Source: an uncultured Nitrososphaerota archaeon
GTDB lineage: Archaea; Thermoproteota; Nitrososphaeria; Nitrososphaerales; Gagatemarchaeaceae
Assembly: GCA_963703285.1 (NCBI GenBank)
Contig: OY969807.1
Span: 416,001-480,000, forward strand
DNA length: 64,000 nucleotides
Reading direction: 5' to 3'
Made by a program: the position numbers and the translations under genes. Below the pieces are notes generated by a model. The model had not been told where the DNA came from. It worked only from the letters and a program-made list of their open reading frames with translations, and did not search any database. Shown here in pieces: positions 24,068-26,927 of this stretch. Numbering within the stretch: position 1 is the first letter of the stretch; each line of letters begins with the position of its first letter.

Positions 24068-24418
24068 TTGCCCAAGAACATCTTCGTCTCGTTCCTGCGC
24101 CCGCCCGTCGGCAGCATCTTCTTCGTCGAGGGATTGAGGGTGGCGGGCAGCCTCGTGAAGAGCGATGACCACAACAAGGTGGTCGTCGCGTTCCTGGGAA
24201 AGGGCGCGAGGTGCGCCCTCCGCGGCGTGGAGAGGTCGTACGCCGTCAAGTTCCAGGACCTTTTCCCAGCCGAAGCTGGCAAGAGGTTCTACGTCGAGGA
24301 GGAGTCTCTGAAGGAGGAAGGCATCGACCCAGGTCAGCTGGCGGATGACTTCGCCGTCGCCTCGAGGAGGGCACTGCAGGAGATGATGCTGAAGGCGGAC
24401 CAGTGCATAAGCTTCTAG
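24068..24418 (+). CDS. DsrF/TusC-like protein
   Basis: PPVGS..EGLRVA, YVEEESLKEEGI. Confidence 0.78.
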   Translation: MPKNIFVSFLRPPVGSIFFVEGLRVAGSLVKSDDHNKVVVAFLGKGARCALRGVERSYAVKFQDLFPAEAGKRFYVEEESLKEEGIDPGQLADDFAVASRRALQEMMLKADQCISF

Positions 24419-24571: not shown

Positions 24572-25207
24572 GTGCAAGCGTCGAGGGAGAACCCCGGGAC
24601 GTTCGATTGTAGCATCTGTGGGGCGAAGTTCCTTCGTTCACGTCAGCTATGCGGTCACAGAGTCGGTAAACACAGCGGTCGTGTCCGTGCCAAGAATTCG
24701 TCGATTGTCCTAGATGAACTCTCGGAGATTCAAATCGGGTACCTTGCGACATTCCTAGATGGTGAGGGAGGAGTCCAGATCACTCGTTCGGAGAGGAAAG
24801 ACCGCGCATACAAAATCGCTCTCCACCCTACTGTCTACTTCACGAACACCTTTAGGCCCTCAATCGACGCATTGCACAACTGGATTAGATCAGGCACTCA
24901 GGTTGTCTCACGCACCCGTGATGGCCGCAAGGACACTCACGTCCTTCACGTGACTGGTATGAGAAACATCTTGCTCTTGCTGGAGGTGCTCGCTCCTTAC
25001 TTAATCATCAAATCTCGACAGGCAAGCGTGATGATGGAGTTTTGTCACAGCCGACTAGGCCACTACAGGGGCCAGGATCGACATTACACAGAAAGGGAGT
25101 TAGAACTATATAGCTGCCTGCATCGACTGAACGAAAGAGGTGTAACAAAGAACGCCAACGCACGGAAGTCTTACCAAGGCGGGGAAATGCGATACCGCAC
25201 CCTTTAG
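24572..25207 (+). mobile_element. Free-standing single-motif LAGLIDADG homing endonuclease with an N-terminal C2H2 zinc finger
   Basis: CSICGAKFLRSRQLCGHRVGKH zinc finger; YLATFLDGEG motif; VYFTNT; LLEVLAPYLIIK; visibly lower GC than flanks. Confidence 0.85.
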
Positions 25208-25338
25208 TCCGAGGTCAGACTCCAAAGATAGAAGGCAAGCCTAGGAAGGGAGCAATCCCCAAGGTAAGGAACCGCAAGACCTACATCAAGAGATTCACAC
25301 TCAAGCGAAAGCCAGGCCAGAATTGGCAGCGCACCTAG
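25152..25338 (+). CDS. rps30e: 30S ribosomal protein eS30 (S30e), two exons: 25152-25186 and 25206-25338
   Basis: Manual translation: exon 1 (ACG)-PTHGSLTKAGK; exon 2 VRGQTPKIEGKPRKGAIPKVRNRKTYIKRFTLKRKPGQNWQRT-stop; SD-like GAGGTG at 25137-25142. Confidence 0.92.
25187..25205 (+). other. 19-nt bulge-helix-bulge (BHB) micro-intron in rps30e
   Basis: GGC/GTC outer helix, GGGG/CCCT central 4 bp, AAA and TTA 3-nt bulges, TGCG-ATAC-CGCA intron hairpin; canonical cleavage restores the frame. Confidence 0.85.
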
Positions 25339-26927
25339 ATCGGGAGTTCACGGACCCCGAGAGGGCGGCGGTAAAGGACGTAGCATCCCAGGTCCTCCAG
25401 GGGAGGATACGGGGGAGGCCCCAGCTCGAGCGCGCGAAGCGGGAGGCCGCCGTCAACCACCACCTCTCGATGTACCTGTCCAACTCCTCGATCCTCCTCG
25501 CCCTCCCTGAAGCCGAGCGCTCCAGGTGGAGCGAGCTCCTCCGCATCCACCCCAGGAGGAGCGCCTCGGGGATAATCATCGTGACCGTCTTCTCCGCTCC
25601 CTTCGGCTGCCCTCACGGCACGTGCGTCTTCTGCCCCGGCGGGCCGCGGCTCGGCACCCCGCAGAGCTACATGCCGGATGGCCCGAGCCAGAGGATAGCG
25701 AAGGGCCTGAACTACGACCCCTATCTGCAGACCAGGCGCTCCCTGAAGAAGTACGCCGAGAAGGGGCACGAGACATCGAAGGCAGAGGCGATCATCGAGG
25801 GGGGAACGTTCATCGCCCTGCCGCAGGACTACCAGCTCCCCTTCGTCAAGAGCGTCTACGAGGGCCTCAACGGCGTCAGGTCCACCTCGCTCGAGGAGGC
25901 ACAGCGCAAGAACGAGTCTGCCTCGAGCAGGTGCGTCGGCCTGACCGTAGAGTCGAAGCCTGACTGGTGCAGGAGGGAGCACATCGACCAGATGCTCTCA
26001 TACGGCGTAACCCGCCTCGAGATCGGCGTCCAGAGCCTCCACGACGGTCCCCTCAGGGCGAGCAACCGCGGCCACACCGTGCAGGACTCCGCGGACGCCT
26101 TCCAGGTCGCCAGGGACGCGGGCCTGAAGATATGCGCGCACATGATGCCCGGGCTCCCGGAGTCGAACCCGAGCGATGACCTCCAGGACATGAGACGGCT
26201 GTTCGATGACGAGGCGTTCCGACCGGACATGTCAAAGCTCTACCCGACCCTCGTCGTGAGGGAGACGGCGCTCGCCAGGCTGGCCGAGTCGGGGCTCTAC
26301 CGACCGTACGACCTCGAGGAGGTTGTCGACCTTCTCGCCGAGATGAAGAGGTACGTCCCGAGGTGGCACAGGATCATGAGGATAATGAGGGAGATACCCG
26401 AGAAGGACATACGCGCCGGCCCCGACGCCGGAAACCTGCGGGAGCTCGTACTTCGTCGGGTCGAGGAACTCGGCTTCAGGTGCAACTGCATCAGATGCAG
26501 GGAGGTCGCCCTGGCCACCCCGCTCGACGCAGGCCCATCCGACCCCCAGTTAGTGACAACGGAGTACTCTGCCTCGGGAGGGGTGGAGACGTTTGCGTCC
26601 TTCGAGTATCCGGAGACGGGCGCCGTAGCCGCTTTCATCAGGATGAGGTCGCCCTCCGACCTGGCGCACAGGACCGAGGTGGACGGGTCGTGCATCGTCC
26701 GGGAGCTCAAGGTCTACGGAAGGGTCGTCTCGGTCGGCGAGAGGAACCAGGACGCCTGGCAGCACAGGGGGCTTGGGAAGGCCCTCTTGGGAGAGATGGA
26801 GAAGGTGGCCCGTGAACGCTTCGGCGCCAAGCGCATTCTTGTGATGAGCGCCGTCGGGACGAGAAACTACTACAGGAAGTTCGGCTACGAGAGGTGCGGC
26901 CCGTACATGAGCAAGCCGCTTCGTTAA
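25323..26927 (+). CDS. elp3: Elp3 radical-SAM/KAT tRNA U34 acetyltransferase
   Basis: CPHGTCVFCPGG, PQSY, IIEGGTF, ESKPDWC, RELKVYG, QHRGLG. Confidence 0.95.
   Translation: MAAHLDREFTDPERAAVKDVASQVLQGRIRGRPQLERAKREAAVNHHLSMYLSNSSILLALPEAERSRWSELLRIHPRRSASGIIIVTVFSAPFGCPHGTCVFCPGGPRLGTPQSYMPDGPSQRIAKGLNYDPYLQTRRSLKKYAEKGHETSKAEAIIEGGTFIALPQDYQLPFVKSVYEGLNGVRSTSLEEAQRKNESASSRCVGLTVESKPDWCRREHIDQMLSYGVTRLEIGVQSLHDGPLRASNRGHTVQDSADAFQVARDAGLKICAHMMPGLPESNPSDDLQDMRRLFDDEAFRPDMSKLYPTLVVRETALARLAESGLYRPYDLEEVVDLLAEMKRYVPRWHRIMRIMREIPEKDIRAGPDAGNLRELVLRRVEELGFRCNCIRCREVALATPLDAGPSDPQLVTTEYSASGGVETFASFEYPETGAVAAFIRMRSPSDLAHRTEVDGSCIVRELKVYGRVVSVGERNQDAWQHRGLGKALLGEMEKVARERFGAKRILVMSAVGTRNYYRKFGYERCGPYMSKPLR

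Follow-up and report, generated by a model that had tools for sequence, protein, structure and literature searches.

In an uncultured Nitrososphaerota archaeon, the gene for the ribosomal protein eS30 is broken by 19 nucleotides (nt) that very probably form a bulge-helix-bulge (BHB) intron of the hBHBh' type in the eS30 pre-mRNA. The splicing endonuclease EndA would cut this intron out and the ligase RtcB would join the exons, resulting in a translatable mRNA. The gene lies in a stretch of 64,000 nt, here called the window, which covers positions 416001-480000 of a one-contig genome of 2.25 Mb (96% complete by marker genes). Judged by sequence comparison, the finding is larger than was first noted in a preliminary description of this DNA: a pair of predicted micro-introns occurs family-wide in a hidden ribosomal protein gene, and each of them is tied to a nuclease gene.

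Three-frame translation finds eS30 in two parts. The frame of 25152 gives the first, ...TPTHGSLTKAGK, with the motif THGSLTKAGK. After it, the same frame is junk that ends with the stop codon TAG at 25242-25244. The second, VRGQTPKIEGKPRKGAIPKVRNRKTYIKRFTLKRKPGQNWQRT*, is read in the frame of 25207 and ends with the stop at 25336-25338; it alone matches the Pfam family PF04758 (Ribosomal_S30) at model positions 12-58, with an E-value of 2.7e-4. Between the two parts lie 19 nt, with the split at 25186/25206. The preliminary description had reported both the frame-shifting break of the eS30 motif by 19 nt and the junk end of the unspliced frame at 25244, and the translation confirms both. The parts of the interrupted gene and of its predicted RNA fold are the following:

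25152..25186, + strand: eS30 exon 1, in which ACG occupies the start position and is followed by PTHGSLTKAG and by AA from a Lys codon that exon 2 completes
25178..25180, + strand: outer helix h, GGC pairing with GTC at 25207-25209 (3 bp: G-C, G-U, C-G)
25181..25184, + strand: exon strand GGGG of the central 4-bp helix H, pairing with the intron bases CCCT at 25200-25203
25185..25187, + strand: 5' bulge AAA, with the predicted cut after 25186
25187..25205, + strand: 19-nt BHB intron, made up of the third 5'-bulge base, the hairpin, the 3' strand of the central helix, and the first two 3'-bulge bases
25188..25199, + strand: intron hairpin h', TGCG/CGCA with the loop ATAC
25204..25206, + strand: 3' bulge TTA, with the predicted cut after 25205
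25206..25338, + strand: eS30 exon 2, with the last base of the Lys codon, VRGQTPK...QRT, and the stop TAG at 25336-25338

The predicted fold has the anatomy of a BHB. Two 3-nt bulges lie on opposite strands with a 4-bp helix between them, and this core is flanked by an exon-exon helix (h) and an intron-intron helix (h'). In tRNA introns at position 37/38 the bulge lies 3' of the central helix on each strand, and the same arrangement is found at eS30. Archaeal EndA cuts after the second base of each bulge. All elements of the BHB had been placed correctly in the preliminary description. The minimum-energy fold of 25170-25217 computed with ViennaRNA agrees with them, running from a helix through a 4-bp helix, a 3-nt bulge, a 4-bp hairpin, a 4-bp helix, and a 3-nt bulge to a helix. 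Only the outer helix is slightly different, with U25208 skipped and the pairs G25179-C25209 and G25178-C25210 formed instead.

In the transcript, exon bases 25178-25184 would pair with 25200-25209, and the intron would form its own 4-bp hairpin. This fold would present the two 3-nt bulges four base pairs apart. EndA, for which there are two EndA-domain genes, would then cut after the second base of each bulge, and RtcB would join the exons to ...GGG AAA GTC..., resulting in an mRNA that encodes a 55-codon eS30. The unspliced RNA would give a 12-residue N-terminus followed by junk.

Evidence for this reading is provided by the product. Once 25187-25205 are removed, AA meets A GTC and reads Lys-Val, the residues that orthologues without an interruption have here. 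The resulting frame of 55 codons agrees at 53 of 54 residues with the uninterrupted eS30 of the nearest relatives (G009 and G014). In this respect the 55-residue protein of the preliminary description stands, but it has no ATG, GTG, or TTG; an ACG occupies the Met position. The bases missing from intronless alleles in the same genus are precisely those predicted to be intron.

In the whole genome of 2.25 Mb, PF04758 was matched at this locus alone, where no Rfam family and no tRNA were found. Both enzymes are encoded in the genome, with two matches to PF01974 (EndA; E-values of 7e-27 and 1e-22) and one to RtcB (PF01139; 4.5e-170). Of 42 tRNA genes, 30 have an intron according to ARAGORN in its intron mode, although some of the predicted introns, notably the very long ones, are doubtful.

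Related genes show how widespread the interruption is. A profile search was made in 41 relatives and then in 97 genomes of the same archaeal family. In 23 of the 97 there was no PF04758 match at an E-value of 0.1 or better, and these genomes are outside all counts. Altogether 86 eS30 loci were parsed, 72 from the family (10 genera sampled) and 14 from other families of the order; locus L058, which has no anchor, was left out. Most eS30 matches in the family are cut short at model position 11-12 or 5-7. At the first of two intron sites, the Lys|Val site of the window, 32 of the 72 family loci have an insert of 19-20 nt. The second site lies upstream. The window intron is found alone in 19 family loci (window included), the upstream intron alone in 27, both in 13, and neither in 13. 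Thus, eS30 is interrupted in 59 of the 72 species-level family loci. In the other families of the order, eS30 is uninterrupted at all 14 loci, with ATG or GTG as the start codon. The rule of a cut after the second base of each bulge holds in silico for every insert, the 32 at the Lys|Val site as well as the 40 upstream.

Further interrupted genes were sought across the order (251 genomes at least 80% complete). One weak match from outside the family, in genome G158, was found among the matches listed (150 of 250). It was considered as an intron (locus L118, G158:C156:44899-45033, from another family of the order) and rejected: a 1-nt insertion after HGSL makes a frameshift. As judged from its sequence, this frameshift is an assembly error or a pseudogene and not an intron.

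The window-type introns were aligned as 28 distinct sequences from 6 genera. In this alignment the proposed pairs are formed in 96.0% of 326 cells, compared with 77.6% in shuffles. Double-sided changes are found in 59 cells (16.0 in shuffles), and the covariation score is 0.522 (0.159 in shuffles). If the partners are slid by 1-3 columns as a control, 31-56% of cells are paired. Helix 1 (h) is paired in 97.6% of its cells, helix 2 (central) in 99.1%, and h', with its 4-5 bp, in 92.3%. Both sides change in 7 of the 12 pairs, and h' has double-sided changes in 4 of its 5 pairs. The third base of the 3' bulge is A in all 28 sequences.

The covarying exon bases are the codon wobble bases of Ala-Gly in exon 1. 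For instance, pair 9-26, which joins the wobble base of an exon Gly codon to the first base of the intron strand, is G-C in 16 sequences, C-G in 6, U-G in 5, and A-U in 1. Pair 6-29 is G-U in 18, A-U in 3, G-C in 3, U-A in 2, and C-G in 1. The sequence of the hairpin is unlike between genera (UGCG/CGCA, CUCUC/GAGAG, CAUC/GAUG, CACC/GGUG) and is always paired.

Several observations weigh against a spliced intron. The fold energy of the site is ordinary (z = -0.96, with 31 of 200 shuffles folding equally well), and it was dropped as evidence for the intron. The strict h3-H4-bulge3-h'4 motif is found 6259 times in the genome on both strands, a rate of 2.6e-5 per position and length; on one strand there are 3080 in the real genome and 2798 in the shuffled one. 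eS30 has no canonical start codon, only the ACG at 25152-54. None of 500 shuffles reaches the observed pairing of the window-type alignment, a control that overstates significance since kin are not independent, and whose figures are not probabilities. Finally, the public runs in which the locus occurs comprise four DNA runs of one soil study and no RNA run. Cutting and ligation in the cell are therefore what we infer from features observed directly in DNA, namely the anatomy of the intron, the restoration of the protein, the enzyme genes, the conservation of the site, the covariation, and the intronless alleles.

Because neither the fold energy nor the number of motifs is unusual, the case rests on position and on comparative evidence. 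What goes beyond chance, as far as sequences can tell, is a BHB motif at the single position and length that restores a conserved protein, kept by compensatory changes. Among the covariation results, more weight falls on the control with slid partners and on the occurrence of four pair types at a single position, both of which are independent of the kinship problem.

Alternately, the ribosome could skip the 19 nt by bypass (hopping), or frameshifting could rescue the gene, without any splicing of RNA. Phage T4 gene 60 is an example of translational bypass, and a short non-coding gap with a hairpin in a small essential gene does resemble a bypass element. At eS30, however, the gap is not flanked by matching take-off and landing codons. 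The covariation keeps the exact BHB architecture together with the pairing between exon and intron, which a bypass hairpin does not need. The gap also comes in several lengths, 19-20 nt here and 31-46 nt at the upstream site, and the BHB cut rule always restores the codon. A translational rescue of this kind is very improbable. It is hardly credible, too, that eS30 is a pseudogene or that the insert is an assembly artefact. The frame is broken and has no ATG, and frameshift errors do occur in relatives, as in the RtcB gene of G021 and G022, which is in three frames, and in the 1-nt frameshift of eS30 in G158. Yet no other eS30 copy was found in the genome, and the same insert recurs, with the exons intact and the base changes compensatory, across 32 species-level genomes. 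A structured insert of 19 nt is not a typical sequencing error, and the identical sequence is found in a separate contig of a public DNA run. This contig, from run X1 (record 3, 24968-25253), carries the 19 nt with zero differences and possibly comes from the sample that yielded the genome assembly.

Splicing by EndA and RtcB, as the preliminary description had read the 19 nt, is thus supported by geometry, product, single copy, enzyme genes, recurrence in 32 of 72 family loci, covariation, and intronless alleles. Same-position inserts with compensatory pairs, which it had named as a check, are present in these 32 loci, with 28 distinct sequences that covary. It had named genomic reads without the 19 nt as a refutation; the contig of run X1, possibly of the same sample as the assembly, contains them.

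The genome was also scanned for further mRNA introns. The 6259 motifs were reduced to 1167 by a filter for joined ORFs (open reading frames) and to 32 by a filter on codon-position GC. By eye, the candidates inspected are neighbouring genes and not split genes. The filter would also miss eS30 itself, with its low GC and short exon, so the scan is no evidence that eS30 is the only case.

The second intron of the family lies 12 nt upstream of the window intron site. It is a BHB intron of 31-32 nt that splits the Leu codon of HGSL, and it is present in 40 of the 72 family loci (for instance L029:1576-1631 and L023:1170-1225). The window lacks it. In one locus (L078, genome G055; L078:442-512) the upstream intron has 46 nt; its hairpin loop contains a run of GTC/ATC triplets, and its BHB part is unchanged.

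The upstream introns were aligned as 33 of 38 distinct sequences, leaving out on account of gaps those of 32 nt (L035, L037, L043, L053) and the one of 46 nt. Pairing is 97.2%, compared with 90.6% in shuffles, of which 0 of 500 reach the observed value, and 31 cells have double changes. The outer helix is a single G-C pair. The wobble pair is G-C in 25 sequences and A-U in 8. By these comparisons, two predicted micro-introns populate the first 40 nt of eS30 throughout the family.

Each intron site has a nuclease gene associated with it. In the window this gene lies directly upstream of eS30 and overlaps it. The surroundings of eS30 are the following:

24068-24418: DsrE-like gene (PF02635, E-value 8e-8), the left flank of the eS30 stretch
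24572..25207, + strand: LAGLIDADG gene, a free-standing ORF of 211 codons with a predicted C2H2 zinc finger and a single-motif I-CreI-like endonuclease
25106..25112, + strand: TATA-like word CTATATA, about 45 nt before the ACG of eS30, also present in relatives without the upstream nuclease gene
25137..25142, + strand: Shine-Dalgarno-like word GAGGTG, 9 nt before the ACG of eS30
25323-26927: Elp3-like gene (radical-SAM/GNAT), the right flank of the eS30 stretch

Between the DsrE-like gene and the Elp3-like gene, the GC content of the window falls from about 65% to about 50%. This low-GC stretch contains the 211-codon ORF and the broken eS30 gene. The TTG start listed for the Elp3-like ORF at 25323 overlaps the final 16 nt of eS30, and its true start may be further downstream.

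Pfam gives nothing useful for the 211-codon ORF (best match DUF6988, E-value 0.044). A profile built from the ORF and six homologues matches homing endonucleases in the PDB: I-MsoI (5.2e-12), I-CvuI (1.1e-6), I-Vdi141I (2.1e-6), and I-CreI (about 1e-3). In a profile search the N-terminus matches C2H2 zinc fingers. An AlphaFold model of the ORF (pLDDT 81.9) is matched by Foldseek to I-CreI and I-MsoI with a probability of 1.00 and a target TM-score of 0.68-0.75. The sequence contains the motif GY.A.FLDGEGG, in which FLDGEGG, including D63, G64, E65, G66, and G67, is invariant in 7 of 7 homologues. The acidic residue of the LAGLIDADG motif is presumably catalytic, as in I-CreI. From sequence and model, the ORF is predicted to encode a LAGLIDADG homing endonuclease of the I-CreI type.

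The gene has its own TATA-like word at 24536-41, noted by eye. Its last 35 codons or so cross the TATA-like box of eS30, the Shine-Dalgarno-like word, exon 1, and the intron, and its stop TAG at 25205-25207 sits on the 3' splice site. The preliminary description was right that a broken frame hides eS30; it overlooked the ACG at the start position and the LAGLIDADG frame that runs through exon 1. In relatives without this ORF, the same promoter and leader directly follow the DsrE-like gene. Residues E176, L177, L179, Y180, L183, N187, and G190, encoded in the overlap (window 25100-25207), are invariant in 7 of 7 homologues; this invariance may reflect the signals of eS30 rather than the enzyme.

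By tblastn, the LAGLIDADG ORF is intact or decayed at 13 parsed loci. Of these, 12 have the window intron and none of the 13 has the upstream intron. The exception, L086 of genome G074, is intronless, and its LAGLIDADG copy is frameshifted. There are 6 intact copies (the window itself, L021, L022, L024, L067, L080), all beside the intron; the others are truncated or in pieces. In the 97 family genomes there are 13 close homologues, with 43-62% identity apart from the window copy, and 12 of them lie directly upstream of eS30. The remaining one, in G097, is at the end of a contig, with eS30 at the end of another, which is compatible with the same arrangement. More distant matches (22-34% identity) are found elsewhere in family genomes. 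Counting against a link between intron and nuclease, 20 of the 32 loci with the window intron show no adjoining LAGLIDADG gene.

The genome of the window has one copy of this endonuclease. It also has weak LAGLIDADG-like matches at 1703154-1703600 (31% identity, in a frame of 586 codons) and 1721395-1721763 (26%), which may belong to an intein or another homing endonuclease.

A second nuclease ORF of about 200 codons is found directly upstream of eS30 in 15 of the 40 loci with the upstream intron and in 0 of the 32 without it. An example is L029:907-1542, a PD-(D/E)XK-like ORF with an N-terminal zinc ribbon, a weak Pfam match. This ORF has no sequence match in the PDB and no significant Pfam domain beyond the weak zinc-ribbon matches. 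The residues P133, D134, E147, E149, and K152 (PD...E.E..K) are invariant in 11 of 11 sequences. For a model of its C-terminal part (pLDDT 75.1), Foldseek gives weak matches to Hjc resolvases (E-value 1.1e-3, target TM-score 0.44-0.49), as well as to R2 endonuclease domains and VRR_NUC. The ORF is tentatively called PD-(D/E)XK-like.

The co-occurrence of introns and nucleases suggests a spread driven by homing endonucleases. In position and in evolution the window intron is linked to the LAGLIDADG gene, and we think that this link explains why the intron is there. In a tentative model, slightly less likely than not to be true, each eS30 micro-intron would provide the immunity for a selfish element made of two parts, the other part being a nuclease gene that stands free upstream; the nuclease would cut intronless alleles, and nuclease and intron would both spread. 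The LAGLIDADG enzyme would cut intronless eS30 at the site of the 19-20 nt intron, and the PD-(D/E)XK-like enzyme at the site of the 31-nt intron. Repair from the donor would copy the nuclease gene along with the intron. The intron would be tolerated since the tRNA-splicing machinery removes it, and it would protect its carrier by splitting the target. The eS30 genes also have two 5' haplotypes that have diverged deeply, one with ATG or TTG and the 31-nt intron, the other with ACG and without that intron. These would be the co-conversion tracts of the two elements.

The phylogenetic distribution was followed in one genus with a protein tree of RtcB, an unlinked locus, for 23 genomes, 20 of them labelled with their eS30 state. 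The resolution of this tree is weak, 10 of its 20 inner branches being open. On it, intron presence changes at least 5 times among the 20 genomes. The four eS30 states need at least 8 changes on this weakly resolved tree, compared with a mean of 9.8 when shuffled, and 32 of 300 shuffles need 8 or fewer. The genome of the window falls in a clade with an SH-aLRT support of 99; in the five other labelled genomes of this clade, eS30 is intronless and the nuclease gene is absent. As read from these sequences, the turnover of eS30 introns is evidently high, and gains are indistinguishable from losses.

Some of the RtcB genes are unusual themselves. In G021 and G022 the gene is broken into three pieces that lie in different frames, a sign of frameshift errors in both assemblies, whose other broken genes need care. 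In G016, G020, G017, and G012 (L106-L109) the Pfam match begins only at model position 27-49 and the open frames, at 996-997 codons, are roughly double the usual size, which suggests an intein or some other large insertion near the N-terminus.

The intron might instead be spliced and be a neutral passenger, with the LAGLIDADG gene as an independent selfish element that targets intergenic or other nearby sequence. It would then hitch-hike in a co-conversion tract, or be an old family trait lost at random, and would protect no target. Such a history would agree with the 12 of 32 intron-bearing loci that have a trace of the LAGLIDADG gene (13 counting the contig-end copy of G097), with the absence of this gene from the 13 loci that have both introns, and with the poorly resolved tree of the genus, in which half of the inner branches (10/20) are open. 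It would also agree with a scan for pseudo-palindromes at the insertion site in 13 intronless alleles, in which the best means, 4.5-4.6 of 11 at offsets +1 and +8, compare with 2.5 over all offsets and none stands out. What it does not explain well is that 12 of the 13 loci carrying the LAGLIDADG gene have the intron too, the exception (L086) having a frameshifted copy, that all 6 intact copies sit with the intron, and that an unrelated second nuclease shows the same one-way link (15/40 vs 0/32). On the whole, a neutral passenger seems rather unlikely.

The preliminary description had suggested a regulatory device, in which eS30 output is tied to EndA and RtcB and ribosome production is thus coupled to tRNA-splicing capacity. 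Functional product does require splicing, the host gene encodes a ribosomal protein, and introns are predicted in many of the tRNA genes of the genome. However, neither intron is present in 13 of the 72 family loci, including those of the five nearest labelled relatives, and at least 5 changes of presence among 20 genomes fit a dispensable mobile element better than a conserved circuit. A tie of ribosomal protein supply to tRNA splicing is unsupported, the homing-endonuclease link offers a different reason for the intron, and a regulatory device is improbable.

The start of eS30 is a separate matter. The codon at the Met position is ACG (25152-54), and an in-frame TAA stands two codons upstream at 25143-45. 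Between this TAA and the conserved HGSL there is no ATG, GTG, or TTG. At the 40 loci where the upstream intron is present, the start codon is ATG (33) or TTG (7). In the 32 loci without it, the start position holds ACG (29), TCG (1, L080), GTT (1, L084), or ATG (1, L004). A word like GGAGG or GAGGTG is found 8-10 nt before the start position in ATG loci and ACG loci alike. The simplest reading of these sequences is that eS30 would be initiated at a near-cognate ACG. In the window, CTATATA at 25106-25112 would serve as the promoter element of eS30, and the Shine-Dalgarno-like word at 25137-25142 may act in its translation.

A larger intron that holds the LAGLIDADG ORF and supplies an upstream ATG was also considered, and was rejected. 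Two possible 3' registers at 25152-25155 lack a 5' partner, as judged by eye and not by an exhaustive search. The Shine-Dalgarno-like word is at a normal distance from the ACG, and relatives without the nuclease gene share the same ACG layout.

eS30 lies in the mRNA entry channel (PMC7531240). A conserved ACG at the start of a ribosomal protein of this channel is a separate lead on start-codon selection in archaea.

The hidden gene has practical consequences. Invisible to ORF callers, eS30 scores only 20 bits against PF04758 in this genome, which is below the cut-off, and so it will be reported missing or pseudogenised in most genomes of the family. This affects annotation, marker-gene sets, and estimates of completeness. 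Selection for RNA structure acting on codons is evident from the wobble bases of the exon, which covary with bases of the intron. A second host gene beside cbf5 would turn a curiosity into a class, eS30 being a ribosomal protein gene with two introns. The one-way link to two nuclease genes also makes it testable how protein-spliced introns move into protein genes. If the proposed homing is true, eS30 would be the first example of collaborative homing among cellular organisms and also among BHB introns spliced by proteins, and it would offer a concrete mechanism by which BHB introns enter and spread in protein-coding genes.

The closest known system is the cbf5 intron. In 2002 Watanabe et al. 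reportedly described it in Crenarchaeota, as a BHB intron of the pre-mRNA for Cbf5, a pseudouridine synthase. The cbf5 pre-mRNA intron of Crenarchaeota is also the subject of Yokobori et al. 2009 (PMC2738675). A study of 2020 names the cbf5 intron as the only mRNA BHB intron reported by then, and itself adds a BHB site in a Haloferax 5' UTR (PMC7714728). No eS30 intron, and no further BHB intron in a coding sequence later than that of cbf5, was found in the literature searched for BHB and splicing endonuclease, a search whose scope excludes most subscription journals and supplements. This agrees with the preliminary description, which knew of no earlier report. In the genome of the window, cbf5 is uninterrupted.

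The eS30 introns resemble the cbf5 intron in having a tRNA-type BHB in coding sequence, presumed cutting by the splicing endonuclease, and a patchy presence with gain and loss. They differ in their host gene, which encodes a ribosomal protein, and in their lineage. eS30 has two introns 12 nt apart in one tiny gene, of only 19-20 and 31-32 nt, and these are associated with nuclease genes beside the host gene. For eS30, splicing is predicted from the sequence.

Archaeal tRNA introns (hBHBh', spliced by EndA and RtcB) have the same geometry and predicted cuts, the size of the eS30 introns is in the range of short tRNA introns, and the enzymes are encoded. In contrast to tRNA introns, the eS30 substrate would be an mRNA. 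Its central helix of codons pairs with the intron, so that coding and RNA structure share nucleotides.

Archaeal rRNA BHB introns that contain LAGLIDADG genes (I-Vdi141I, PDB 3e54) share with eS30 the endonuclease family and a host gene of the translation apparatus. I-DmoI is another LAGLIDADG endonuclease of archaeal rRNA BHB introns. Unlike these, the gene beside eS30 lies outside the intron, upstream of it, has an N-terminal C2H2 zinc finger, and overlaps the promoter and exon 1 of its host.

Finally, in collaborative homing a free-standing endonuclease is said to act together with an intron that has no ORF of its own, as reported for F-CphI with the psbA group I intron of cyanophage S-PM2 and for mobE of T4 with the I-TevIII intron. 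The eS30 locus is similar in its free-standing endonuclease gene beside a gene with a short ORF-less intron, which could divide the target of the enzyme, in the one-way co-occurrence, in the decaying copies, and in an apparently patchy distribution. It differs from the phage systems in that its hosts are cellular archaea and its intron would be a protein-spliced BHB intron and not a self-splicing group I intron, and it would belong among them only if the hypothesis of homing holds.

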